From positions 1,766-65,765 of the forward strand of contig JBIIIW010000001.1 in NCBI GenBank assembly GCA_044234345.1: a DNA stretch of 64,000 nucleotides. The letters are read 5' to 3'. This DNA is from Minisyncoccia bacterium (GTDB lineage: Bacteria > Patescibacteriota > Minisyncoccia > Phycocordibacterales > PALSA-1337). Below, one piece after another: positions 4,655-56,599 of the stretch. Under the pieces are notes generated by a model. It did no database searches and was not told the origin of the DNA. It was given only the letters and a program-made list of their open reading frames with translations. Made by a program: the position numbers and the translations under genes. Positions within the stretch are counted from its first letter, which is position 1. Every line of letters begins with the position of its first letter.

Positions 4655-4966
4655 ATGTACAACGAGGACGAAGCAGTCGAACTCATTGGTTATCTGACTC
4701 GCTCCAAAGCGATCTGGATGAACCCAGAATTGCTCAACCTTGTTGAGTCTGCTCCTAGTCCCACGAAAGCATATGCTCTAGTACTTCAAAGTACTGGAAG
4801 CCAAAAGAAGGCTAAGGCTGGACGTTGGTATGCATGCGCAATTAGAGACTTCGGAAAAGACTCACTAGGTGCACTCACGGCAGTACTCAATTCTCCGCAA
4901 GGTGCGGTGAAATTGGAGGTATTGCTAACAACTACGTACCCCGGTTCACCCCGGAGGGACAAGTGA
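4655..4966 (+). CDS. hypothetical protein (GC-rich cassette gene 1)
   Basis: 103-aa ORF, about 47% GC against the ~34% background, directly followed by the next ORF (AGGAG RBS 7 nt before ATG 4977). Confidence 0.5.
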   Translation: MYNEDEAVELIGYLTRSKAIWMNPELLNLVESAPSPTKAYALVLQSTGSQKKAKAGRWYACAIRDFGKDSLGALTAVLNSPQGAVKLEVLLTTTYPGSPRRDK

Positions 4967-4976
4967 AGGAGATGGT

Positions 4977-6077
4977 ATGATTATCGCGAACATTCCGTTA
5001 GGTATACAACTCGGTGTGATGCTGTTATGCAGTGTAGCTGGTCTCTGGATATTCCACTATTGTGTGATTAGAGTGATCTTACAAGGAGGTCGTCCGCAAA
5101 ATGGTCCGCCAGAGAGTAGGGAAGAGAAATCAACAGAGGTTGCTTCAAAAACTTCGAAGATCCTGCTCGATGAGTTGAAGACAAGCCTGGTTAAGACTCT
5201 AAGAAAGCGTGACCGGGAAAGTCAATGTGATTCAGCGTTCTGGGCATCTTTTTCGCTTGTTGGAGAAAGCGAAGAGTTTGGTGTCGTGGTCTTAAGGGTA
5301 GACACTAACAACTATGGTTATCAAATAAGAACAGGTAACTTTAAAGATTCGAACGCTTGGGAAAATCTGGTAATAGCGACCCGAAAAGGATACTGCTTCC
5401 TTGGAAGAGTGAACCTCTACAAGGGTGCTGTGTATAACGGGCCGTTTCAGATTACAAAATCCGAAAGTGGATCAATTGTAGTTAGCTGGGGACAAGCTTC
5501 GTTCACTATTAAGGACGAGGAGATGAGAGGTGGTTATGATTTTCCATTCGAATTACCTCCGCGTTCTGAGATGGTAAGAACTGTCTACAACCTTAATGGT
5601 GCTATTGTCGTAATCGATGATGATCCAGGCCAAGGTCGGTATGTTCAGTTTTCGGTAGATCAAATGGGTAAGCGACTGAAAGCAGATCGCACAGTCTGGG
5701 ATTTACCGGGTTGCGTTAGGTGTGTCAAAGATGCAATTCAATATTTACCAGATTGTAGTGGTCGTCGTGAACAGGTTAGACTAGTCCTCGTTGACGGCAA
5801 CTTTAGCGGGGATGGAAGAGGTTTCAATACCGGTAGACTCATTCCTGTATTGCGCGAACGATACCCCAATGCACTCCTTTTCGCGAATAGTGGAATGGCT
5901 GAGAATCATACTAACCATACTCCCGAACTATTGGCAGCTGGTTGTGACTGTGCGCTCTCGATCGAAGATTATGGTTATAAGTCAAATCTGACTAAAATCC
6001 TAGCAAGAGTAGCCGAGCTCAAGCCGGAGATTCTTGTGAGTGAGGAACTTGACTTGAATGAAGTTCTAAAAATCTGA
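4977..6077 (+). CDS. hypothetical membrane-anchored protein (GC-rich cassette gene 2)
   Basis: 366 aa with an N-terminal TM helix (IPLGIQLGVMLLCSVAGLWIF). C-terminal region VLVDGNFSGDGRGFNTGRLIP...LLAAGCDCALSIEDYG is of unknown fold. Good RBS and terminator. Confidence 0.6.
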   Translation: MIIANIPLGIQLGVMLLCSVAGLWIFHYCVIRVILQGGRPQNGPPESREEKSTEVASKTSKILLDELKTSLVKTLRKRDRESQCDSAFWASFSLVGESEEFGVVVLRVDTNNYGYQIRTGNFKDSNAWENLVIATRKGYCFLGRVNLYKGAVYNGPFQITKSESGSIVVSWGQASFTIKDEEMRGGYDFPFELPPRSEMVRTVYNLNGAIVVIDDDPGQGRYVQFSVDQMGKRLKADRTVWDLPGCVRCVKDAIQYLPDCSGRREQVRLVLVDGNFSGDGRGFNTGRLIPVLRERYPNALLFANSGMAENHTNHTPELLAAGCDCALSIEDYGYKSNLTKILARVAELKPEILVSEELDLNEVLKI

Positions 6078-6085
6078 CATTACAA

Positions 6086-6111
6086 GCGGGCACTCTACCA
6101 AGGGTGCCCGC
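6086..6111 (+). terminator. intrinsic terminator
   Basis: gcgggcac-tctaccaagg-gtgcccgc hairpin followed by attttct. Confidence 0.7.
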
Positions 6112-6177
6112 ATTTTCTATACAAATATTGGTAAGTAAAACTAAATTAATAAATCAGCGTCATACCAGTACCTGTGG

Positions 6178-6229
6178 TGTTATTCAGAACGAAAGGGAAG
6201 AGGAATACCCTAAATCATCTATTAGCTAT
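6178..6229 (+). repeat. right copy of the direct repeat (core 6188..6215)
   Basis: See 4480..4535. Confidence 0.8.
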
Positions 6230-6610
6230 TCCCCGATATGTTTTAAAAAGAGTTGGCATGGATAACAGAGGAGAATGGAATATTAAATTAGTAATATAAA
6301 GATTATTATATTTCTCAATTAATTCCTTAATGTTTATTTAAAATATGAGCGATCAAGGTATCGATGGGCAAGTAGTAGTTAGCTTCCTTTCTCCTATAGA
6401 GACAACGTCGCACAATATACCTTTTACGATATAGATACACTATAAACCACTCCCCCGATTAAGCTAAAAAATCTGTAAGCGACACTCGCCTATTATTCTT
6501 TGTCATTAATTTAGTCTCTGTAATTAATTTTAAATAAATTTATTTCTAATAATTTATGTATACAAATATTTAAATTATTTTATAAAATTTGCCTCACTAT
6601 TGTTATCTTA

Positions 6611-7039
6611 TTGATATTTCCGTATTTAATGCTAGAATCAGCTCGGTTACAGCTAAAACACTTACATAGGTATTATCGTATGCCACAGATCATTGTTAGA
6701 TATAATCCGAAGCTGATTAGCCCGGATATGCTCAAGCATTTGGACTCAGTCTTTTCACCGGTAGTCGCCAATCTGGCAAGTGTAGCCAGTGGACCGATAT
6801 TTACCGCTAAGGACGTCGACTTTTTCACATACGCAAACGAAACCTCATCCAGATGCCCGGATCTTGCTATCGAGATACGGACAATTGGACATGCGGATAG
6901 AATCGAGTCTTTGAATCAGTCCGCGCAAATACTTGTCGATATTGTCGTAAAGGCATTGATTGTTAAGTGTGGTCTGAATATTCCGCCCCATGGATTCCTT
7001 TGGATCCAGGCAATTAGCCCAGCAGGTGTGCATGTCTAA
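6611..7039 (+). CDS. hypothetical protein, possibly tautomerase-superfamily-like if translation starts at MPQ (6677)
   Basis: Internal Met-Pro start MPQIIVRYNPKL... of about 120 aa is reminiscent of Pro1 tautomerase/CHMI-like proteins. GC-rich and followed by a strong terminator. No SD seen at either candidate start. Confidence 0.35.
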   Translation: MIFPYLMLESARLQLKHLHRYYRMPQIIVRYNPKLISPDMLKHLDSVFSPVVANLASVASGPIFTAKDVDFFTYANETSSRCPDLAIEIRTIGHADRIESLNQSAQILVDIVVKALIVKCGLNIPPHGFLWIQAISPAGVHV

Positions 7040-20919: not shown

Positions 20920-21933
20920 CTACATCAACAAATTTGAAACCAAAGCAACCATAAGTTCTTTGTCCCTAGGATTACTCTCAGCAATGAGTAATGCAAGAGC
21001 TACTAGAGTATTGTCATTTATCTTCTTCTCTCCGTTGTCTCTAATATCCATCCTATTTAGTCTCAGGAAGTAAATGAATACAAATGACCCTATACGCTTG
21101 TTACCATCTGAGAAAGGATGATCTTTAATGATGAAATACAATAAGTGGGAAGCTTTTTCGTTAAGACTTGAGTATAGCTCCTTACCGTCGAAGGTTTGGT
21201 ATATGGTCTTAAGAATACCTTGGAAACTTCCATCCCTTTCGGAACCGAATATATCTGTAGCTTCCTTCTTATCAACCAATACTTCTTTAAGCATATCTAT
21301 CGATCCACGAATGAATTCATAATCAAAACGTCTTTTCTCAATATCCTTACCCTTCCTTAGCTGCAGCTCACCTTCATCATATTCCTTTAGGAACTTCCAA
21401 GAATTCGCATAGTCATGGATAACGGAAAGAAGACTATTAGACTCACCCCTGTCCAATTCTCTGTTTCTAATTGTTCTTTGAATAAAGGAGATCTTTTCAT
21501 CTAAGTCACTAAGTATCTTGTCTGGTAGTTTAGATATTCTTTCGTTGTTAACTACAATACCTTTGATTAGATACTCACGGAGAGTGACGGTGGCCCAGAT
21601 ACGGAACTGAGTTGCTTTCTTGGAGTTAACTCTATATCCAACAGATAGTATTACATCTAAGCTATAGAACCTTACCTTGTAATTCTTACCATCAGCGGCA
21701 GTATGTTCCAAAATGGAACTAACTGAACTTTCGTTAAGCTCACCAGAATCGAAGATATTCTTAAGATGTTTTGTAATTGCTGGTCTTTGCGTTCCAAATA
21801 ACTCTGATATTTGTTCCTGCGTAGCCCAAATCGTCTCCTTGTCCGTATCCGCTCTTAGCTCAACTACCCCATTCTCACCTGTGTATAATACTAACTTACC
21901 GTCCTCATTTATAACGATGTTTTTGTTTACCAT
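20920..21933 (-). CDS. Fic/Doc-family protein with N-terminal RhuM-like domain
   Basis: The N-terminus (LYTGENGVVELRADTDKETIWATQEQISELFGTQRPAITKHLKNIF) resembles the RhuM virulence-protein domain. The C-terminus carries the Fic motif HPFSDGNKRIG. Confidence 0.8.
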   Translation of the reverse strand: MVNKNIVINEDGKLVLYTGENGVVELRADTDKETIWATQEQISELFGTQRPAITKHLKNIFDSGELNESSVSSILEHTAADGKNYKVRFYSLDVILSVGYRVNSKKATQFRIWATVTLREYLIKGIVVNNERISKLPDKILSDLDEKISFIQRTIRNRELDRGESNSLLSVIHDYANSWKFLKEYDEGELQLRKGKDIEKRRFDYEFIRGSIDMLKEVLVDKKEATDIFGSERDGSFQGILKTIYQTFDGKELYSSLNEKASHLLYFIIKDHPFSDGNKRIGSFVFIYFLRLNRMDIRDNGEKKINDNTLVALALLIAESNPRDKELMVALVSNLLM

Positions 21934-25320: not shown

Positions 25321-25947
25321 TCATTTTACGATGAGAGTTTCCAGATGTTCCATTACCTTCACCAAGCTATCATTCAAGATTACTGGTGATGTTTTTACAT
25401 TGATACAATCGAGGTTCTCGATGCCGACTGGTATGTATCCTTTTCCGTGGTTACCCCAGTCATTGTGTGACATGTAATCTGCCAGATCCCACATCATGGG
25501 TTTAGTCCTTTCTGGATTATTTAGATCCATTTCATACTCAGCTCTGGCTATGCGTTCAATTTTTGCATACACGGACTCCCATGTAACTCGGATGGCTTTC
25601 ACTCTGTTCCTCTTGCGGAATCCTCCAAAGAACAACTTACCGTTGTTCGATACAAAACCTTCTTTCTGCCTTTCTCCTATCACGTATTCGAGAAAGTAGT
25701 CAGGATGGCAATTTGCTTCATAGAATATCTCAGCTGGTCGGTCAAGCGTCTCTACTGTTATGATTACTCCGTAGCTGTAGGCATCAAATACCCTAATCGC
25801 AATGTCGGTTGTTGGGTCAAATGCGCTATCAGACGGTCTATGACCTCTGGTCATGTATCCGTTAATAGGTTTTCCAACTTCCGGCTCGTATACCGGAACT
25901 ATTTCCGGCGCGTTGCCAATAGGTTTACAACTTCTAGCTCTTTTCAC
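25321..25947 (-). CDS. hypothetical protein, GC-rich ORFan (208 aa)
   Basis: Soluble ORF of higher GC with no recognisable motif. Confidence 0.5.
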   Translation of the reverse strand: MKRARSCKPIGNAPEIVPVYEPEVGKPINGYMTRGHRPSDSAFDPTTDIAIRVFDAYSYGVIITVETLDRPAEIFYEANCHPDYFLEYVIGERQKEGFVSNNGKLFFGGFRKRNRVKAIRVTWESVYAKIERIARAEYEMDLNNPERTKPMMWDLADYMSHNDWGNHGKGYIPVGIENLDCINVKTSPVILNDSLVKVMEHLETLIVK

Positions 25948-26637: not shown

Positions 26638-27090
26638 TTAATGCTCTAGAAACTCCTCGAGTTCCTTAGACATTTGCTTGACCAAGAGTTCAAGACGAGT
26701 CTTATCTTGCTCAAGATATTGCTTGTATGCCGCACCACCATCGGTATCATCGAGTTTAGGATCAGATAGTTCTTTCTGAACTCTTTCAAGGTTAGCATTG
26801 TGGTTATCCAATACTCGCGTGAATGACTCGAAAGCACTATTCCGTGCTTCATCCAAGCTGAACCTTAAGGCTGACTTTGGTATGTCGTAGAGTCTCATTT
26901 CCTCCAATATCCATAAATACTCCTGAAGCGACTCACCCTCCTCAATTTGCCCCGCATTCATACGGACCAAAAGATCATTGATTTCCTCAATAGCGTGTTT
27001 CCTTCTAACCCACGTTAGTATCCAATACACTACAGGGACGATGATGGCAATTGCACTCAGGACAATTATGAGCGATAGGATTCTGTTCAT
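26638..27090 (-). CDS. membrane-anchored coiled-coil protein, paralog 1
   Basis: 150 aa with an N-terminal TM helix, then RKHAIEEINDLL... Homologous to 27222..27683. Confidence 0.55.
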   Translation of the reverse strand: MNRILSLIIVLSAIAIIVPVVYWILTWVRRKHAIEEINDLLVRMNAGQIEEGESLQEYLWILEEMRLYDIPKSALRFSLDEARNSAFESFTRVLDNHNANLERVQKELSDPKLDDTDGGAAYKQYLEQDKTRLELLVKQMSKELEEFLEH

Positions 27091-27200
27091 GTGTTCTATA
27101 CTCCTTCTGTTGTATTTCTACCACGTGAATGGAGCCTAGTCTAGGTACACGTATACCCACTGTTCATGCCAGCACAAAGAAATATTTTAATCAATACAAA

Positions 27201-27218
27201 AGGGTGCAAACGCACCCT
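27201..27218 (-). terminator. intrinsic terminator of gene 27222..27683
   Basis: agggtgcaaacgcaccct, the same module as 26617..26634 with a compensatory C:G to U:A change in the stem. Confidence 0.7.
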
Positions 27219-27221
27219 CGT

Positions 27222-27683
27222 TCACTCGACACTAAATTGTTGCAATTCATACTCCATTCTTTCTTGTAGTGTGTGGAGTCTCCGTAGCTCGTACCAAAGT
27301 TTTACTTTCCTAGACGATTCATTCTCTCCGTCATTTAATTCTAGACCATTCATCTCTTCTAAGAGTGTCTCTTGCTGGGCTTTGATAGCGTCTATGGCTT
27401 TTTGAAACGAGTTCTTTGCCCACATTTCCACCGTAGGAAGGTTATGCGAGATCTCGGATTGTTCGATTCCATGCAGGCTCATCAGGACAAGTATTTGAGA
27501 AAATATCCTTAGAGAATCTGGATCCCCCTTGTCACAATTCTTGTTAATTAAAGCTATCTCACGGTTGATGTGTTCAATCGCAGCCTTCTTCTCAACCATC
27601 TCCATGAATTTGTAGAACTTAAACAGGATGATGGTGAGTATTGCAATGCAAATCAGTGCGATAGTAAAGCTAACTGGATTCAT
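27222..27683 (-). CDS. membrane-anchored coiled-coil protein, paralog 2
   Basis: 153 aa with an N-terminal TM helix, then KKAAIEHINREI... Confidence 0.55.
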   Translation of the reverse strand: MNPVSFTIALICIAILTIILFKFYKFMEMVEKKAAIEHINREIALINKNCDKGDPDSLRIFSQILVLMSLHGIEQSEISHNLPTVEMWAKNSFQKAIDAIKAQQETLLEEMNGLELNDGENESSRKVKLWYELRRLHTLQERMEYELQQFSVE

Positions 27684-27804
27684 GATGTGCTCCTAAGTTC
27701 ACCGTAATTGGTGGTTCTAAACATATTTTTACCACACGACACAGACAAAGTAAAAGGGACCAAGATTCAATCTTGGCCCCTGAAAATTCACCCAGTTTCT
27801 CCTA

Positions 27805-28461
27805 TCAGAACCAGGAGAAATATACTTTGACTGGTTTGAATTGCAACCCTAACCGATCTCCGAAACACAGGATTGTAGTCAAATGCATACCCCTTGCAAT
27901 CGTGTGCTCGTGACTATCAGCACGCCCAGTATTCTCCAGTAGCTTGATCCACCGTATCAGTTTTCTTAAGGAATCATACTCAAAATGTTCCAATAGTTTG
28001 TTTTCATTTAAGCTACTGTGGTATCCCATTATTACCCCAGCATGACCTTCTGGTTCCATTCTCATTACGGATATCGAGGAGTCATGCCTCGTATTCACCA
28101 CCTCACAGTATTCACGAAAGTGGCGACAGAAATAATTCCAGTAATACGCATCCTGACTCACAGGTCTATTGAAAGCCAGTAGAAGTGATGTGATGATGGT
28201 CAATGCCCCTGTTCCGAGGTAAGGCCACCTTAACACATCTTCATTGTCCCTGAAAACTACCAACACGCTGAGTGCACCAATAAAGGTGATCAATGATAAA
28301 ACGAAACATGCGAATAGCATTTTGTAATGCTCCTTCCTGGTCAGGAATTCATCAGTCTTCCTAAGGATTGACTCAATGTCCTTACCCTCCTTGCCTTCGA
28401 TTTCTAACGTTCGCTTCAGCCACAACGCGAACAGGTCGCGCACCGCTTTGTTGTTCTTCAT
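27805..28461 (-). CDS. hypothetical membrane protein (2 TM), GC-rich
   Basis: 218 aa. Two TM helices (MLFACFVLSLITFIGALSVLVVF, GTGALTIITSLLLAF) and a C-terminal His-rich soluble domain. Confidence 0.5.
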   Translation of the reverse strand: MKNNKAVRDLFALWLKRTLEIEGKEGKDIESILRKTDEFLTRKEHYKMLFACFVLSLITFIGALSVLVVFRDNEDVLRWPYLGTGALTIITSLLLAFNRPVSQDAYYWNYFCRHFREYCEVVNTRHDSSISVMRMEPEGHAGVIMGYHSSLNENKLLEHFEYDSLRKLIRWIKLLENTGRADSHEHTIARGMHLTTILCFGDRLGLQFKPVKVYFSWF

Positions 28462-43889: not shown

Positions 43890-44936
43890 CTACGCCACTA
43901 CCTTAGAATCAGCTGGAGAATACTTACCATCCTTGTTCTTCTTGAAATGCTTCTGGTTCTGGATATTAACCATAATAGTGTTTTCCTTTACATATCTCTC
44001 CTTCATTACCTTTTCGATAATCTCATCTTTAGATAGAGGACCATGCTTCTCTAGTATGCTCTTTATAACATCCTTAACTACTCCTGACATATATCCCCAT
44101 TCACGTAGAGCGTATAGACCACGTCCTACAAGTACAAATCTCTTGTCTTTAATTAGTTCGTTATGAGTTGTTGCGATATGAGCCTTCTTCTTGAATATTG
44201 TAGTAATCTGCTTAGCAACCTCTTTGAAGTGTATAGGTGAACCATGCTTACGGATAACTAGGAATGCATAGTCTCTCATACCCTTTGTCTTGATATTTGA
44301 AGAATGAGATACTCCCCATTCACCCATAGCATTTTTACCAATCATCTTAGAAAGTGATAGCCAACGCTTAACAATCTCCTGATTCTTGTATTTCTCAGAA
44401 ACTTGCTCTAGATGTGACAGGAACTTGTTAACAATCTCTGATTCAACTAGTAGATCGTCATCTGAAAGTTCTCCATATAGCTTTTTTAGAGAGTCTTCAA
44501 CTTGTTTTGAAAGCTCTTCGTTTACATGCCATCTGTGCTTGAATTCATCATCCTCCTTTCTCTTCTTGAATACATCACCAATTACTAGTATGAAGTGTAT
44601 ATGATTCTGTAGTTCTAGATCCTTTGATGCATGTCCAAGGAAATCATCTTCAACAACAATTCCACCAAGAGAGTGTATTAGAGTCTCAAGTTCAGCAAAT
44701 GCAGCCTTCTCAGCCTTATATGCATCTGACTTACGGATATTAGCTAGAGCATAGTTCTCTATCTGACGTACTCTTTCACGAGTAATTCCATATAGTTTAC
44801 CTATAGCATCTAGAGTCATTTTCTCTGTACTCTTGCCTAGACCGTATCTTTTGACAAGGACTTCACGAGCACGATCAGGTAGCACTGAAAGCAGCTTCTT
44901 TGATGTTTGTTTTGGTTTGAATTGGATGTTTGCCAT
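43890..44936 (-). CDS. sigma-70 region-4 HTH domain protein with C-terminal HARE-HTH-like domain
   Basis: The N-terminus (LPDRAREVLVKRYGL...TLDAIGKLYGITRERVRQIENYALANIR) matches sigma70_r4. The C-terminus (HFKEVAKQI...DKRFVLVGRGLYALREWGY) matches the HARE-HTH signature found in the RNAP delta subunit. Confidence 0.6.
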   Translation of the reverse strand: MANIQFKPKQTSKKLLSVLPDRAREVLVKRYGLGKSTEKMTLDAIGKLYGITRERVRQIENYALANIRKSDAYKAEKAAFAELETLIHSLGGIVVEDDFLGHASKDLELQNHIHFILVIGDVFKKRKEDDEFKHRWHVNEELSKQVEDSLKKLYGELSDDDLLVESEIVNKFLSHLEQVSEKYKNQEIVKRWLSLSKMIGKNAMGEWGVSHSSNIKTKGMRDYAFLVIRKHGSPIHFKEVAKQITTIFKKKAHIATTHNELIKDKRFVLVGRGLYALREWGYMSGVVKDVIKSILEKHGPLSKDEIIEKVMKERYVKENTIMVNIQNQKHFKKNKDGKYSPADSKVVA

Positions 44937-52163: not shown

Positions 52164-52715
52164 TTAGTTATTGCTTCCATTAAATTTCTTTGCGTAAGCT
52201 AGTTGAGCCTTCTTGATTAATTCGTAAGCCTCTTTTGGCCCAAGGAACTTACCAATCTTAACTGTTCCTGGTCCTGTCTGAGGTATCTTGTATGTCTCGA
52301 AGAATGTCTGTAGATCCTTTCTCTCATATGGAGCTAGTTCCTCTACATGTGTAATGTGTGAGTATCTTGGATCCTTGTTGTTTACTGTAATTATCTTAAA
52401 GTCTTCTTCATTGTTATCAATCATTTCTAGGGCTCCGATAACACGACCACGAACAAGTGCACCTGGAACTATTGGGTGAGTGCTAAATACTACTGCATCT
52501 AGAGGATCGTTATCTCCCTCATTCCATGTTGATGGCACATCACAGTAGTTTACTGGGTAATAGAAAGGACCAAAAAGAACGCGGTCAAGTTCGATTATTC
52601 CGTAATCCTTGTTGTACTCATACTTATTTGATTCACCTTGTCGTATTTCTACTATTAGGTTTAATATTTCAGGAGCTTTGTCCTGTGGAATTGAGTGAAA
52701 ATGTGTTTTATTCAT
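52164..52715 (-). CDS. ppa: inorganic pyrophosphatase (family I)
   Basis: YYPVNYCDVPSTWNEGDNDPLDAVV and a family-I PPase core. 183 aa. Confidence 0.9.
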   Translation of the reverse strand: MNKTHFHSIPQDKAPEILNLIVEIRQGESNKYEYNKDYGIIELDRVLFGPFYYPVNYCDVPSTWNEGDNDPLDAVVFSTHPIVPGALVRGRVIGALEMIDNNEEDFKIITVNNKDPRYSHITHVEELAPYERKDLQTFFETYKIPQTGPGTVKIGKFLGPKEAYELIKKAQLAYAKKFNGSNN

Positions 52716-52753
52716 ATGGCAAGATTGTAGCCTGATTTTGGCGTTTTTACAAG

Positions 52754-53320
52754 TTAGTACTTGCGTACTACACCCTTAACAATTGCACGTATCTTCATAT
52801 CATTCTCAGGATATATTGGTCCGTAATTCTTATTAGCGGCCTCGAGATATACACTGTTACCTCTCTTCCTGAAGTACTTCATTGTCCATCCACCATCTAC
52901 CTCTGCAATTACTATGTCTCCATCCTTAGGATCATCTCTACGTTCCACTATTACTAGATCACCCTCCATAATTCCTTCTTCAATCATTGAGTCACCTTTA
53001 ACCTCAAGTAGGTATGATGACATCCTGTTTTTGATCAAGTAGCTATCTAGGCTTAATTTATCAAGCTCATTCTCTTCAGCTACTGTGGGTATACCAGCCT
53101 CAACTAGTCCAAGTAGGTTAACTTCCTGGAAAAGATTATTGGGTACTATCTTACCTGTACTATCCTTACTTATGACACCTATATCTATTAGCTTATTAAT
53201 TAATTTATATACTGAGTTCTTAGACTTGAAACCAAGAAGAGACATAACCTCAGCATAGCTGGGCATTCTCTTGTTCTTCTCGTAGAAAGAAAATATTTTG
53301 TTTTTATATTCCTCTATCAT
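52754..53320 (-). CDS. lexA: LexA-type transcriptional repressor (S24 peptidase)
   Basis: N-terminal winged HTH (YAEVMSLLGFKSKNSVYKLINKLIDIGVIS). C-terminal S24 domain with VKGDSM (Ser nucleophile) and WTMKYF (Lys). Confidence 0.8.
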   Translation of the reverse strand: MIEEYKNKIFSFYEKNKRMPSYAEVMSLLGFKSKNSVYKLINKLIDIGVISKDSTGKIVPNNLFQEVNLLGLVEAGIPTVAEENELDKLSLDSYLIKNRMSSYLLEVKGDSMIEEGIMEGDLVIVERRDDPKDGDIVIAEVDGGWTMKYFRKRGNSVYLEAANKNYGPIYPENDMKIRAIVKGVVRKY

Positions 53321-53328
53321 TATTATGA

Positions 53329-53526
53329 TTATAGTACAAAACTTGCAAATACATTAAATGTTCTCTTGAACCAACTTGATTTAGTTGTTTCGTAGAATCC
53401 GTAGAACTGTGATACTAGAAACTTATGTCTTCGAGCTTCTGCCTTGTATGGAAGTCCCTTTATGATTTTAAGATCGATATCATTATTCAATTTCTTTATT
53501 TCTCTAACTAATTGTATTTTACTCAT
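53329..53526 (-). CDS. small hypothetical protein, first gene of the lexA operon
   Basis: 65 aa with a hydrophobic C-terminus. Directly downstream of a LexA box plus TATAAT and 8 nt upstream of lexA. Confidence 0.4.
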   Translation of the reverse strand: MSKIQLVREIKKLNNDIDLKIIKGLPYKAEARRHKFLVSQFYGFYETTKSSWFKRTFNVFASFVL

Positions 53527-53565
53527 ATGTTTTTTAATTAATTTCTCTTATGAATATATTATAGG

Positions 53566-53579
53566 TGAACAATCGTTCA
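53566..53579 (-). promoter_or_regulatory. Cheo-box type LexA operator (tGAACaatcGTTCa) overlapping a TATAAT -10
   Basis: Sequence ggtGAACaatcGTTCacc read directly. It matches the Gram-positive consensus CGAACRNRYGTTCG in 12/14 positions. On the minus strand it is immediately followed by TATAAT and, about 35 nt later, the ATG of the small ORF. Confidence 0.6.
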
Positions 53580-53610
53580 CCTGCAAGAGAAAAGGTGGGG
53601 ATAAGTAAAA

Positions 53611-53631
53611 CCGCATGGGCACTCCATGCGG
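53611..53631 (-). terminator. intrinsic terminator after the sigma factor gene
   Basis: ccgcatgggcactccatgcgg with a U-run on the minus strand. Confidence 0.6.
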
Positions 53632-53643
53632 CTTGTGATTACT

Positions 53644-54540
53644 CTAACCTGCTGCCTCACATACCTTTCTTGCTATAAACGACTCTAGATCTGGGTCTTG
53701 CTCGGCGCTGTCAACATCAATTGCAACTCTGAGCTTCTTGAATGCTGCTGCCTGGATCTGACGAATCCGTTCCCTGGTGACTCCATAGAACTTACCAACC
53801 TCATCCAAGGTCATAGGATCAGAGTCGTCCAGACCGAACCTCAGCGTAAGTATTCTCTGTTCTCTTTTATCGAGTCTGCTTAAATGCTTCCGAAGTAGAC
53901 CAAGAAGATCTGACGATTCAATATCGTCAAATGGCATTTTTGCTGAGTGGTCAGCGAGAATGTCTGCAAGGGAGGTGTTATCGAAATCCCGAACCTGAGC
54001 CTCGAGATGTAAGTTTGGCTGCGCCCACTCAAAAACCATTCTTACATTATCCTCAGTTAGATGCGTTGCCTTTGCAATTTCTGCATGACTTGGTTCATAC
54101 CCGAGTTGCATTTGAAGTTTCTTCTCAGCTTTTCTTATCTTACCGAGACGAATCACCTGGTGAACCGGCATTCTCACATTCCTGACTTGGTTGGCGAGTC
54201 CGCGCTTAATTGATTGTTTGATCCACCACGCAGCATATGTCGATAGTTTCGCACCCTTAGCTGGGTTGAATTTATCAACTGCTCTCATTAGGCCAATATT
54301 GCCTTCGTTGATAAGGTCAACGAGTGGCAAACCGTAGTCGAGGTATTCTCGTGCGATTTTCACCACCAATTTGAGATTGCTTCGAATCATTGTTTCTCTG
54401 GCCTCTTTGTCGCCCATAGCAATTCTTCCTGCCAATGCAGTTTCCTGCTCTGGGGTCAGCAAATCGTGTTGGAGAGCGTCATTGGCATATAGCCTCATGA
54501 GAAAATCGTCGCCATCATCATATGTGCCTTCTTTTGCCAT
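53644..54540 (-). CDS. RNA polymerase sigma factor, RpoD-like (compact, regions 2-4)
   Basis: DLINEGNIGLMRAVDKFNPAKGAKLSTYAAWWIKQSI (r2), PVHQVIRLGKIRKAEKKL (r3.0), LTLRFGLDDSDPMTLDEVGKFYGVTRERIRQIQAAAFKKLR (r4.2). About 44% GC. Confidence 0.85.
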   Translation of the reverse strand: MAKEGTYDDGDDFLMRLYANDALQHDLLTPEQETALAGRIAMGDKEARETMIRSNLKLVVKIAREYLDYGLPLVDLINEGNIGLMRAVDKFNPAKGAKLSTYAAWWIKQSIKRGLANQVRNVRMPVHQVIRLGKIRKAEKKLQMQLGYEPSHAEIAKATHLTEDNVRMVFEWAQPNLHLEAQVRDFDNTSLADILADHSAKMPFDDIESSDLLGLLRKHLSRLDKREQRILTLRFGLDDSDPMTLDEVGKFYGVTRERIRQIQAAAFKKLRVAIDVDSAEQDPDLESFIARKVCEAAG

Positions 54541-54604
54541 ATTCGGTGCCTTGTTTGGTTGTTAGAACATTATCTACCTAAAGATTACATCTAATTATGA
54601 GGAT

Positions 54605-55168
54605 TTGTCAAACTATATTGATGGTATAATGTCAGACAGATTAATCGTTATGGATACCAAGTATTCATGTCCAAAAATGTTCAAAGGGGAGGTCGCAAGA
54701 TTCTTCAATGGACAAATACAGTTTAGAACTGTATACGGAGAAGTTTTTCGTGGTAAACCTCTGTCGATTAGATTCGACGAGCATATACACCCGAAAAGGT
54801 TCTTTATCTGGTTTGAATGGTATGTAGCCGTTAGACCAGTTCTTGTTTCATCCAATGGATTGCTTTTCCTTCGTGGGGATAGTGATAGGATTCATAGATC
54901 ATATACAATGTCATTCGACCTGGAGAAGTTCTATTTTCCAAAGTCATACTTTGTTGAAGTGAGAAGGGGAAAAACTGTCTACGTTAAAAGACCAGACAGG
55001 AGGCGAATGAAATGGACAACCTCAGCCAATGACGAAGAATTCAGATTCATCTTGGGTGATGATCATGCGAGACTTGAGTTTAATGGTGATGGAGATCTTG
55101 TCTCGATGTCCCCTGTCACTCTCGAGGAGCATAACAAAGGAGTCCCGACTCCAATTCAGCGACCATAG
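54605..55168 (+). CDS. hypothetical protein, GC-rich (187 aa)
   Basis: Beta-rich ORF followed by a terminator. A TGGTATAAT extended -10 lies inside the first 10 codons, so the true start may be a downstream Met. Confidence 0.5.
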   Translation: MSNYIDGIMSDRLIVMDTKYSCPKMFKGEVARFFNGQIQFRTVYGEVFRGKPLSIRFDEHIHPKRFFIWFEWYVAVRPVLVSSNGLLFLRGDSDRIHRSYTMSFDLEKFYFPKSYFVEVRRGKTVYVKRPDRRRMKWTTSANDEEFRFILGDDHARLEFNGDGDLVSMSPVTLEEHNKGVPTPIQRP

Positions 55169-55170
55169 CA

Positions 55171-55198
55171 AATCCCGCCAAACAGGCGGGATTCTTTT
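55171..55198 (+). terminator. intrinsic terminator
   Basis: aatcccgccaaacaggcgggatt followed by cttttat. Confidence 0.65.
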
Positions 55199-55334
55199 AT
55201 CCCTCATCCAATCACATTGTCACAAGTTAAATTACAATTAAACTAAAGCAGATATTCCTGCAAATTAAAAACCGCCACCAATTAAGGTGCGCGGTGTGTG
55301 GAGGATGGAGAGTTAAGTATCCTCTTGGTTAAGT

Positions 55335-56039
55335 TTACATAACCATACCATCTTTTGCTTTTCGGAAAACATCTGGTTCATCTAGCTTAATGTCGAGGTC
55401 AGAAGCGAGGGTAACTGCAAACTCTCTAAAGTCACTCTCACATTTCTGGACGTGTATTCCAGTCTCAATTAAACGATTTCTTCCACATTCTTTTCTCCTT
55501 CGTCGCTGATCAAACTCCACTTGCGCCCAGATAGTATTACGTGCCAGTGTTATCGCCATTCCATGAATGTATTTATCATCAATCATGTTGCGATTACTAT
55601 TTCCACGTCTGGCAGGATTTAGTGACAATAGTGACCTCTGTAGATTTTCAAAAACGAGGTCACAAATCTCGATTTCTCTATTCTGTTTATTCCAGTTACT
55701 TTCATTCCTGATGATGAAGACGCAGGTTGGTATGATTGTAAGCAGAAGGCAAACAAAGTAGATGACCATACTGTCCTTCATAGGTGGAAGCAAAAACCAC
55801 TGACACAGAAAAGCAATGGGTATGGTGAGATACAAGAACTTCAATATCTTGCTACAGTTTTCCTTAGTGACTATAGCAGACTCACGAGATTTCCTAAGCT
55901 CCAGCAAACATCTACCGTCATATCTTCGAGCCTCCCATTTTTTGCGAAGGGGCTCTGACATAACACGGAGCATACGCTCAATTTCCTGATCATTCATCTT
56001 TGAATGCCATAATATGAACTCATGGGGCTTGCAACCCAT
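55335..56039 (-). CDS. hypothetical membrane protein (2 TM), GC-rich
   Basis: 234 aa with two TM helices in the centre, an Arg-rich C-terminus, and topology similar to 27805..28461. Confidence 0.5.
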   Translation of the reverse strand: MGCKPHEFILWHSKMNDQEIERMLRVMSEPLRKKWEARRYDGRCLLELRKSRESAIVTKENCSKILKFLYLTIPIAFLCQWFLLPPMKDSMVIYFVCLLLTIIPTCVFIIRNESNWNKQNREIEICDLVFENLQRSLLSLNPARRGNSNRNMIDDKYIHGMAITLARNTIWAQVEFDQRRRRKECGRNRLIETGIHVQKCESDFREFAVTLASDLDIKLDEPDVFRKAKDGMVM

Positions 56040-56196
56040 TTCTACAAGCGGGCAGCCTGTAGAAATACTTCATGTAATTCAGAATAGATAGGCAGCTACT
56101 CTGTAATATACTATACAATAGATACTAAAATAGTCAATTTTGTGGACTCTAGTTTTAGTTTTTTGGACTGAAGCGTAAAGGATAATTTACACGATT

Positions 56197-56481
56197 CTAT
56201 CGAGATTTACTAAAAAATATACTGATAATTGTAAGTATAAGTAGAAAGCCTCCTAATAGCACAGAACGATTCATACTCTCACTTATATGATCACCATAGT
56301 AAATAAATTGTGTGGATATAATTATGCCAACAATAAGATAAGATAATCCGAGTATTCGTGCTACTTTCCTCGTGATCTCTCGACTAGATGATACTACTAA
56401 CCGACTATCCTTAAGTAGCTTGAATGCAACATAAAATATAAATGCTATTGGAAGTAAAATAAAAACAAGCAATATTCCCAT
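56197..56481 (-). CDS. small hypothetical membrane protein
   Basis: 94 aa with 3 hydrophobic helices. Confidence 0.4.
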   Translation of the reverse strand: MGILLVFILLPIAFIFYVAFKLLKDSRLVVSSSREITRKVARILGLSYLIVGIIISTQFIYYGDHISESMNRSVLLGGFLLILTIISIFFSKSR

Positions 56482-56526
56482 TTAATTGTATTTAAAAATA
56501 TAATACTTATTATAACACCAATTCTG

Positions 56527-56599
56527 TGGACTCGAGGAGATTCGAACTCCTGACCTTTCGCTTGCAAAGCGATTGCTCTACCAACTGAGCTACGAGCCC
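56527..56599 (-). tRNA. tRNA-Ala (anticodon UGC)
   Basis: Minus strand reads GGGCTCGTAGCTCAGTTGGTAGAGCAATCGCTTTGCAAGCGAAAGGTCAGGAGTTCGAATCTCCTCGAGTCCA. It folds as a cloverleaf with a G3:U70 pair, a TTCGAAT T-loop, anticodon TGC, and no encoded CCA. Confidence 0.9.

Follow-up and report, generated by a model that had tools for sequence, protein, structure and literature searches.

A sigma-70 gene displaced in situ within a probable plasticity zone between tRNA-Ala and lexA of a Minisyncoccia bacterium

Sigma factors determine the transcription programme as a whole, and the genomes of the candidate phyla radiation (CPR), of about 1 Mb, carry very few genes for them. In a stretch of 64,000 nucleotides from a Minisyncoccia bacterium (Patescibacteriota; assembly GCA_044234345.1, contig JBIIIW010000001.1, positions 1,766 to 65,765; hereafter the window), a gene of the sigma-70 family lies between lexA and the gene for tRNA-Ala(UGC), within a block of raised GC content. 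The closest described proteins are the group 1/2 sigma-70 factors (RpoD/SigA, RpoS and the group 2 factors of cyanobacteria and actinobacteria), with which its product shares regions 1.2, 2, 3 and 4 and an end-to-end alignment to Protein Data Bank (PDB) entries. The product differs from these factors in having only 298 residues, with neither region 1.1 nor a non-conserved insert, and in scoring below the family cut-offs. Its gene differs in lying in a variable region, in its foreign codon usage, and in being replaced by a 53%-identical homologue in a sister lineage.

Replacements of this kind are known from the comparative genomics of operons as gene displacement in situ, or xenologous gene displacement. 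The locus has the same signature, namely near-identical orthologous flanks around a homologous gene that has diverged far beyond its neighbours. It departs from the known cases in that the gene encodes a sigma-70 factor, the lineages are about 95% identical, the boundaries lie no more than 14 nt from the ends of the open reading frame (ORF), and no donor is known, with xenology and old paralogy both possible. The locus also resembles tRNA-associated genomic islands, as a tRNA 3' end adjoins it, a direct repeat is present, its content varies among relatives and its composition is atypical. Unlike such islands, it has no integrase among its ORFs, its repeat bounds no more than an AT-rich segment of 369 bp, and its GC-rich genes lie beyond the repeat, two of them being residents of the locus in relatives. 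Finally, the presence of a membrane protein gene close to the sigma gene recalls the modules formed by an extracytoplasmic function (ECF) sigma factor and its membrane-bound anti-sigma factor. Here, however, the sigma factor is of group 1/2 type, and the transmembrane (TM) protein lacks an anti-sigma domain, is encoded in a separate transcription unit and has a homologue in a relative (L015) with no sigma gene beside it. The locus does not constitute a sigma/anti-sigma module.

The interval from tRNA-Ala(UGC) to the SOS-controlled operon of a 65-aa gene and lexA is probably a plasticity zone, in which the apparent GC-rich island would be a composite of three unrelated layers. The first layer would be an integration scar, an AT-rich remnant of 369 bp bounded by a duplicated tRNA 3' end. 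The second would comprise two clade-restricted, fast-evolving genes, encoding proteins of 234 aa and 187 aa, which reside in the zone and are functionally untied to the sigma factor. The third would be the sigma gene itself, monocistronic and with its own terminator, inserted between the 187-aa and 65-aa genes in a narrow lineage only. It would have arrived with foreign composition and codon usage, its closest relatives being RpoD-like sigma factors of Verrucomicrobiota type. In the sister lineage the cassette would then have been displaced by the 53%-identical homologue, leaving the promoter side and the terminator unchanged.

Exchange of the sigma gene between sister lineages

The exchanged segment comprises the following features:
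53632–54554, minus strand: sigma cassette, the exact segment over which the two sister lineages are not homologous
53644–54540, minus strand: 298-aa ORF of the sigma-70 family, with regions 1.2, 2, 3 and 4
53611–53631, minus strand: terminator hairpin CCGCATGGAGTGCCCATGCGG followed by TTTT; follows the sigma gene, is identical between the lineages and marks the 3' limit of the swapped block

The hairpin scan reported the terminator on the plus strand, and its minus-strand T-run was read directly from the sequence.

The sister lineage is represented by two metagenome contigs (L001 and L002), with about 95% DNA identity to the window and the same gene order. Outside two segments, global alignment to these contigs gives 84–99% identity per 100 columns, mostly at least 90%. 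One of the two segments is the sigma cassette, in which identity falls to 50–72% (54554–53632). The divergent block starts 14 nt upstream of the sigma ATG and ends 12 nt after the stop codon, and beyond these points both the flank and the terminator are conserved. The other is the stretch adjacent to the tRNA gene, where a run of N in L001 leaves the difference only partly informative.

The products of the 65-aa gene, ppa and zwf are 100% identical between the lineages, those of lexA 99% and those of ddl 96%, against 53% for the sigma factor. Synonymous sites of the two sigma genes are saturated (proportion of synonymous differences, pS, 0.78; nonsynonymous divergence, dN, 0.40), and the flank genes show a synonymous divergence (dS) of 0.08–0.21 with dN/dS ratios of 0–0.29. 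Positive selection since the split was rejected as the cause of the sigma divergence in view of this saturation. Hypermutation or diversity generation acting on the sigma ORF was likewise rejected: the divergence spans the whole 0.9 kb, synonymous sites are saturated, and the window holds no second copy of any portion of the gene except the region-4 domain of an unrelated protein (43890–44936).

The window-type allele occurs in the window, in L091 (100% identical) and in L102, and the other allele in L001, L002, L103 and one contig of 4018 bp. An artefact of metagenome assembly or binning, for instance a chimera or the collapse of several strains into one contig, could be suspected from the run of N beside the tRNA gene in the L001 scaffold and from the several contigs that end inside the sigma gene. 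It is as good as ruled out, because three to four independent assemblies per allele, made from different samples with different pipelines (JGI, ENA, Logan, NCBI), show it attached to the same flanks. Flank single-nucleotide polymorphisms are consistently linked to the sigma allele, and both ORFs are intact. The sigma swap is an in-situ gene displacement. The contig of the closest GTDB species (L003, lexA 92%) starts within the 3'-terminal part of a window-type sigma gene, and because it carries this 3' end, the window type is taken as the older allele at the locus and the L001 type as the displacing one.

The swap would have run through the conserved flanks, by homologous exchange with an unsampled relative that shares the locus architecture. 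This route is favoured, and judged about twice as likely as reciprocal loss, according to which the recent common ancestor had a tandem of two old sigma paralogues (a-b) upstream of the 65-aa gene and lexA, with a lost in the window lineage and b in the sister lineage. A tandem of two compact sigma genes is present in a Paceibacteria metagenome-assembled genome (MAG), directly upstream of lexA (L074, 399–2304; 285 and 278 aa). The two genes have GC contents of 46.5% and 41.8%, against 39% for their locus, their products are 32–42% identical to each other and to all other sigma factors compared, and one of them has a non-canonical region 4.2.

Reciprocal loss draws on the existence of this GC-elevated tandem, and it fits better than homologous exchange with the cassette flanks, which are as similar as the rest of the alignment and show no imported divergence. 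It is also consistent with the sister position of the two alleles in some neighbour-joining (NJ) analyses, and with the frequent breaks of contigs within the sigma gene. Against it, no contig carries both alleles, and the shared upstream flank up to position −14 together with the shared terminator would demand two very clean deletions. The L074 sigma factors are moreover distant from all others, and their pairing with the two alleles is probably long-branch attraction. On balance reciprocal loss is unlikely, though not negligible, and homologous exchange is the preferred route.

Immediately downstream of the cassette, about 380 bp (53248–53631) are 99–100% identical to L001, with 92–97% elsewhere. 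This near-identity suggests recent recombination between the lineages that may have halted at the non-homologous sigma gene.

Gene content of the interval in relatives

A lexA-anchored scan of GTDB genomes yielded 80 loci, from MAGs of Paceibacteria or 'Taylorbacteria' type. Nine relatives, with lexA 73–81% identical, keep the orders ddl–tRNA-Ala and 65-aa gene–lexA–ppa–zwf–ychF, and the 1.7–5.1 kb between tRNA-Ala and the 65-aa gene has a different content in each of the nine. No sigma gene was found in this interval of the nine relatives, even by a profile search with a cut-off of E ≤ 10. Between the 187-aa and 65-aa genes, the slot is empty in L009, L012 and L013, holds the genes of a 91-aa TM protein and a bPH_2 protein in L004, L007 and L015, and holds a bPH_2 gene in L016; a sigma gene occupies it only in the window lineage. 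Where the insert is missing, the 187-aa family gene is divergent from the 65-aa gene across a shared intergenic region of about 120–130 bp.

These slot contents, together with the positions of the gene families across relatives, identify the neighbours as residents of the variable zone and the sigma gene as a lineage-specific insertion, not a conserved syntenic rpoD. The preliminary description of the locus, which was made from the window sequence, had named as its refutation that this is the only sigma-70 gene and that relatives show identical synteny with the same GC offset. The outcome in relatives is divided. The closest lineage does share synteny and GC offset, but with a different sigma allele, and more distant relatives have no sigma gene here. 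A search of metagenome contigs with a 24-mer from the SOS box and promoter returned distant loci only (lexA 51–55%), none of them with a sigma gene beside lexA.

The zone is delimited on the lexA side by:
53567–53578, no strand assigned: LexA (Cheo-type) box GAACGATTGTTC, within the TTGCAG-17-TATAAT promoter of the 65-aa gene–lexA operon
53329–53526 and 52754–53320, minus strand: conserved operon of the 65-aa gene and lexA (profile scans, relatives)

The box and promoter form the fixed right-hand edge of the variable zone. The 65-aa gene stands directly upstream of lexA in nearly all of the 80 loci, and is apparently a conserved component of the SOS operon that has yet to be characterised.

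A compact sigma factor of group 1/2 type

The sigma protein scores above the Pfam gathering scores for regions 1.2 to 4 (Sigma70_r1_2 25.5, r2 66.2, r3 57.8 and r4 64.1 bits) and aligns end to end with residues 102–358 of Bacillus subtilis SigA at 44% identity. Its best PDB matches, also end to end, are B. subtilis SigA, Escherichia coli RpoD and RpoS. Region 1.1 is absent, as region 1.2 begins at residue 16 of 298 with nothing before it. The region 4.2 helix (TRERIRQ) is canonical and region 2.3/2.4 (YAAWWIKQSI) is near consensus, and both are kept in the two alleles. All curated NCBIfam equivalog cut-offs for RpoD, RpoS and SigA exceed the scores obtained (score/cut-off of 279.6/378.7 for RpoS TIGR02394, 263.6/555 for RpoD PRK05658 and 250/354 for RpoD_Cterm), and the superfamily model TIGR02937 alone passes. 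The compact RpoD-like sigma factor of the preliminary description is thus recovered at 53644–54540 on the minus strand; judged by its sequence, it is assigned to the sigma-70 family, group 1/2 type, and is not demonstrably RpoD.

The determinants in regions 2 and 4.2 suggest that the protein would bind core RNA polymerase and initiate at ordinary −35/−10 promoters. Promoters of canonical form occur nearby, upstream of the 65-aa gene (TTGCAG-17-TATAAT) and of the 234-aa gene (TTGACT-16-TATAGT).

No other complete sigma factor is encoded in the 64-kb window. The sole other sigma-like sequence is a 348-aa protein (43890–44936, minus strand) that joins an N-terminal Sigma70 region 4 to a HARE-HTH domain resembling the delta subunit of RNA polymerase; in L005 and L016 a similarly placed region-4 match downstream of ychF probably represents the same gene. 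A role of the sigma factor in a defence system was considered and rejected, since PADLOC gives only a generic similarity to the sigma domain of MzaA, and nothing for the neighbours.

Composition of the GC-rich block

The window has a GC content of 38.0% (s.d. 1.5% across 2.5-kb windows). The entire block (53632–56135) reaches 42.3% and so ranks among the top 0.4% of 2.5-kb windows, with 46.0% in the sigma cassette (53632–54554) and 40.1% in the remainder (54555–56135). The block ends at about 56135, short of the tRNA gene, and the 369 bp adjacent to the tRNA have 29% GC. The compositional signal is real but composite and uneven; the rise first described, to about 44–48% over 53600–56100, is present but was overstated.

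GC content at third codon positions (GC3) is 0.445 for the sigma gene, 0.40 for the 187-aa gene and 0.42 for the 234-aa gene, with core genes at 0.25–0.33. Codon usage was scored for each gene against simulations that preserve its own amino-acid composition, with z-scores of −7.7 for the sigma gene, −3.4 for the 187-aa gene and −5.2 for the 234-aa gene. Ribosomal protein genes, rpoA, dnaK and aminoacyl-tRNA synthetase genes have z-scores of about +1 to +4, and GC3 is 0.25–0.31 in the ribosomal protein genes, rpoA and dnaK. The atypical composition that had been suspected is confirmed by these values (z −3.4 to −7.7), and the nine MAGs show that the segment lies in a region variable among relatives.

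A native, vertically inherited housekeeping rpoD, with a GC content raised by high expression or by its amino-acid composition, would account for the full group-1-like domain set, with region 1.2 and a canonical region 4.2. It would also agree with the lack of another complete sigma factor in the window, and with the apparent paucity of CPR sigma genes (two further complete ones in about 1.2 Mb of relatives' loci). Expression level, which the preliminary description had offered as a simple cause of the shift, is rejected because both GC3 and codon usage are typical in ribosomal protein genes, rpoA and dnaK, with positive z-scores where the sigma gene has −7.7. Relatives of the same synteny lack a sigma gene here, the slot in the sister lineage holds a 53%-identical gene, and no relative has a homologue above 54%, though core proteins are 75–90% identical. 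A native rpoD is accordingly quite improbable.

The 187-aa family is GC-elevated in most relatives also, so the composition of the 187-aa gene is not evidence of recent transfer here.

Four further atypical patches lie in the window (4655–7039, 15995–17236, 25321–25947 and 26638–28461), made up of ORFs with no Pfam family, GC3 of 0.40–0.52 and codon-usage z-scores of −4.7 to −9.8. About one sixth of the window genes form a second compositional class, consisting solely of lineage-specific proteins.

Origin of the two alleles

An exact look-up of the window's sigma factor returned no record. The closest homologues among 5.8 billion proteins are 50–54% identical to the window allele and 57–60% identical to the other allele. 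The L001 allele is 59% identical to P0007, P0003 and P0009, against 53% to the window allele. Top homologues with a taxonomic label are nearly all from Verrucomicrobia/Verrucomicrobiota (P0132, P0209, P0228, P0266). The two contig contexts of homologues that were inspected are both GC-rich, one with 66% GC and PSCyt/PSD1 domains, the other with 58% GC and rich in glycoside hydrolases. Proteins with PSCyt/PSD1 domains are typical of bacteria of the Planctomycetes–Verrucomicrobia–Chlamydiae (PVC) group. One homologue labelled 'Pacebacteria' (P0058) was not used as evidence, as its contig is 3.6 kb long with 47% GC and its binning is doubtful.

NJ bootstraps group the two alleles, both of them long branches, as sisters in 79% of replicates if the L074 sigma factors are excluded and in 32% if they are kept. 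A pairing of the alleles with the L074 tandem itself was judged to be long-branch attraction and set aside. A phage origin was also rejected, since relatives in IMG/VR are at most 39% identical, PHROGs gives only a generic sigma family, and matches in GenBank phages are at most 45% identical and resemble ordinary rpoD-like genes. The alleles may stem from two imports, from a single old import that later diverged in unsampled relatives, or from old paralogues, all three being compatible with the data.

Several observations weigh against a foreign sigma gene that was displaced by simple exchange. Among 5.8 billion proteins no donor was found for either allele, nothing exceeding 54% or 60%, respectively. 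The alleles could belong to an old CPR-internal lineage instead of being PVC imports, and the high GC content may be a lasting trait of these gene families, not a sign of recent transfer. The flanks carry no imported divergence over 100 bp, whereas simple exchange with a diverged donor predicts otherwise.

The tRNA-Ala gene and its att-like repeats

The tRNA-proximal part of the interval contains:
56526–56599, minus strand: tRNA-Ala(UGC) (ARAGORN; Rfam tRNA, 71 bits), with its 3' end facing the variable region
56519–56536, minus strand: proximal attachment-site-like (att-like) core CTCGAGTCCACAGAATTG, the last 11 nt of the tRNA and 7 nt downstream
56135–56152, minus strand: distal att-like copy CTAGAGTCCACAAAATTG, 16/18 matches to CTCGAGTCCACAGAATTG, 384 bp from the tRNA
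56153–56518, minus strand: AT-rich remnant between the two att-like copies; strain-variable; holds a 94-aa ORF; the 369 bp beside the tRNA gene (56153–56520) have 29% GC
56197–56481, minus strand: 94-aa ORF with three hydrophobic segments, inside the AT-rich remnant

The tRNA gene is the sole match of Rfam and ARAGORN in the window, and its 3' end does face the block, as had been noted. The distal sequence is the sole other copy of the proximal core in 64 kb at no more than three mismatches. Repeats of comparable quality are common in all-against-all comparisons of the region, so a 16/18 repeat alone is unconvincing. It becomes credible because the alignment to L001 resumes nearby (window about 56170–56140) and because relatives show clear copies. 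In L013 the tRNA-Ala 3' end recurs in two more direct copies (one perfect over 21 nt, one with 1 mismatch), which bound two islets, and L009 has one weaker copy (14/16). tRNA-Ala(UGC) is a real integration hot spot in the Paceibacteria clade, in agreement with the preliminary description.

The islets of the relatives measure 1.0–1.6 kb, lie downstream of tRNA-Ala (L013, 5047–7630; L009, 5183–6250) and contain a single ORF each, one of which encodes an APH-type phosphotransferase/kinase (L013); no integrase was found in them. At the position of the AT-rich remnant, L001 has unrelated sequence and a scaffold gap, and the 94-aa ORF has no homologues in any fetched locus. The run of N in L001 follows immediately after tRNA-Ala (about 1620–1720), and the content of the hot spot may exceed its assembled length.

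The preliminary description had read the region as a genomic island at the tRNA-Ala 3' end, carrying an alternative sigma factor and possible membrane partners, with two degenerate tRNA-end copies as decayed att sites. The hot spot, the atypical composition and the variability of the region are all real, and so is one of the two copies, which with 16/18 matches is better than claimed; the second (56164–56173) matches at 8/10 and is indistinguishable from chance. What the better copy delimits, however, is no more than a 369-bp AT-rich segment outside the GC-rich block. At the lexA-side end of the block the tRNA 3' end does not recur, 52700–56134 containing only chance-level 14-mers, and none of the five interval ORFs has an integrase or recombinase domain (Pfam, PHROGs and PADLOC; NCBIfam for three of the five). 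Furthermore, the 187-aa and 234-aa genes are present in relatives that lack the sigma gene, and each of the three GC-rich genes is a transcription unit in its own right, with a terminator. Because the att-like copy bounds only 369 bp, none lies on the lexA side and no integrase is present, the GC-rich block is not a tRNA-integrated island, and a sigma-bearing island of this kind is most improbable.

The 187-aa and 234-aa neighbours

The genes between the sigma cassette and the AT-rich remnant are accompanied by their own signals:
56110–56137, minus strand: promoter-like TTGACT-16-TATAGT (10/12, consensus match only), upstream of the 234-aa gene and abutting the distal att-like copy
55335–56039, minus strand: ORF of the 234-aa protein, with a two-segment hydrophobic hairpin at residues ~65–113
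54605–55168, plus strand: ORF of the 187-aa protein, with start codon TTG in the window and ATG in L001
55171–55193, plus strand: intrinsic-terminator-like hairpin and T-run, directly after the 187-aa gene

Apart from the sigma gene, the interval ORFs have no matches in Pfam, PHROGs or PADLOC; nor does NCBIfam give any for the 187-aa and 234-aa proteins. A family of 187-aa proteins is nevertheless recognisable, as a gene in the same position and on the same strand beside the 65-aa gene and lexA in L004, L007, L009, L012, L013 and L015. A probable seventh member, in L016, was aligned by eye and has no BLASTP link. Identity within the family is 15–28%, with the common motifs GGQxQ, RGE, GRxKxW and FFxxDDHxNL. 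With the 187-aa protein as query, a full HMMER scan of 1.84 billion representatives retrieved only the sister-lineage orthologue and one 35% match, no relatives were found in metagenome contigs, and an AlphaFold model from two sequences reached a predicted local distance difference test (pLDDT) score of 35.6. The protein, first described as an ORFan with its own terminator, does have the terminator (55171–55193); as the six relatives show, it is no true ORFan and belongs to a fast-evolving family.

The 234-aa protein, in which the two TM segments first noted are borne out, is predicted to place both termini of its hairpin on one side of the membrane. Its sole homologue in relatives is in L015 (36% identity), with no sigma gene there. 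Both neighbours are 93% identical in the sister lineage, and their dN/dS ratios of 0.29 (187-aa) and 0.23 (234-aa) indicate real genes under purifying selection. Since their homologues occur in relatives without the sigma gene (the 187-aa family in six, the 234-aa homologue in L015), they are not linked to it, and the proposal that they are its membrane partners is abandoned.

The surrounding core genes, all on the minus strand, are typical of CPR: ychF, zwf, ppa and lexA, followed by ddl, uvrC and uvrA. The names ychF, zwf, uvrC and uvrA come from reading of the translations and from conserved order in annotated relatives, not from a profile scan. Elsewhere in the window, a gene of the RhuM/Fic-DOC family (20920–21933, minus strand) lies between dnaJ and dnaK, and may encode a toxin or represent a mobile-element remnant.

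Principal or accessory sigma factor

The sigma factor is somewhat more likely an additional, group-2-like factor than the sole principal sigma factor of the cell, which is itself only a little short of an even chance. An accessory role is favoured because relatives lack a sigma gene at this locus, so that their essential sigma gene must sit elsewhere; foreign codon usage, the absence of region 1.1 and the replaceability of the gene point the same way. In favour of a principal role are the group-1-like domains, the scarcity of sigma genes in CPR genomes, the occupation of the slot in seven of seven contigs and the replacement of the gene by a homologue rather than its loss. A literature search for published counts of sigma factors in CPR returned nothing usable.

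A more far-reaching proposal, which is unlikely, is that the sole sigma-70 gene of a reduced CPR genome has become an exchangeable cassette, captured from a Verrucomicrobiota-like source, later swapped again between near-identical lineages, and with its alleles kept apart by selection despite recombination in the flanks. Candidate agents of such selection would be phage anti-sigma proteins acting on regions 3–4, where the alleles are unalignable.

The attractive reading of a sigma island integrated at a tRNA gene together with partner genes is thus corrected, and tRNA-Ala(UGC) is documented as an integration hot spot in the Paceibacteria clade. What the locus presents instead is a group 1/2 sigma factor in a CPR genome whose gene is compositionally foreign, lies in a probable plasticity zone and has been exchanged ORF for ORF between lineages about 95% identical. 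The swap itself follows a known evolutionary pattern, here applied to a CPR sigma factor. If the factor is accessory, the exchange would represent ordinary regulatory gene flux. If it is the only sigma factor of the cell, a core informational gene would have been displaced, and the two lineages would provide a natural experiment on the compatibility of sigma factors with core RNA polymerase.

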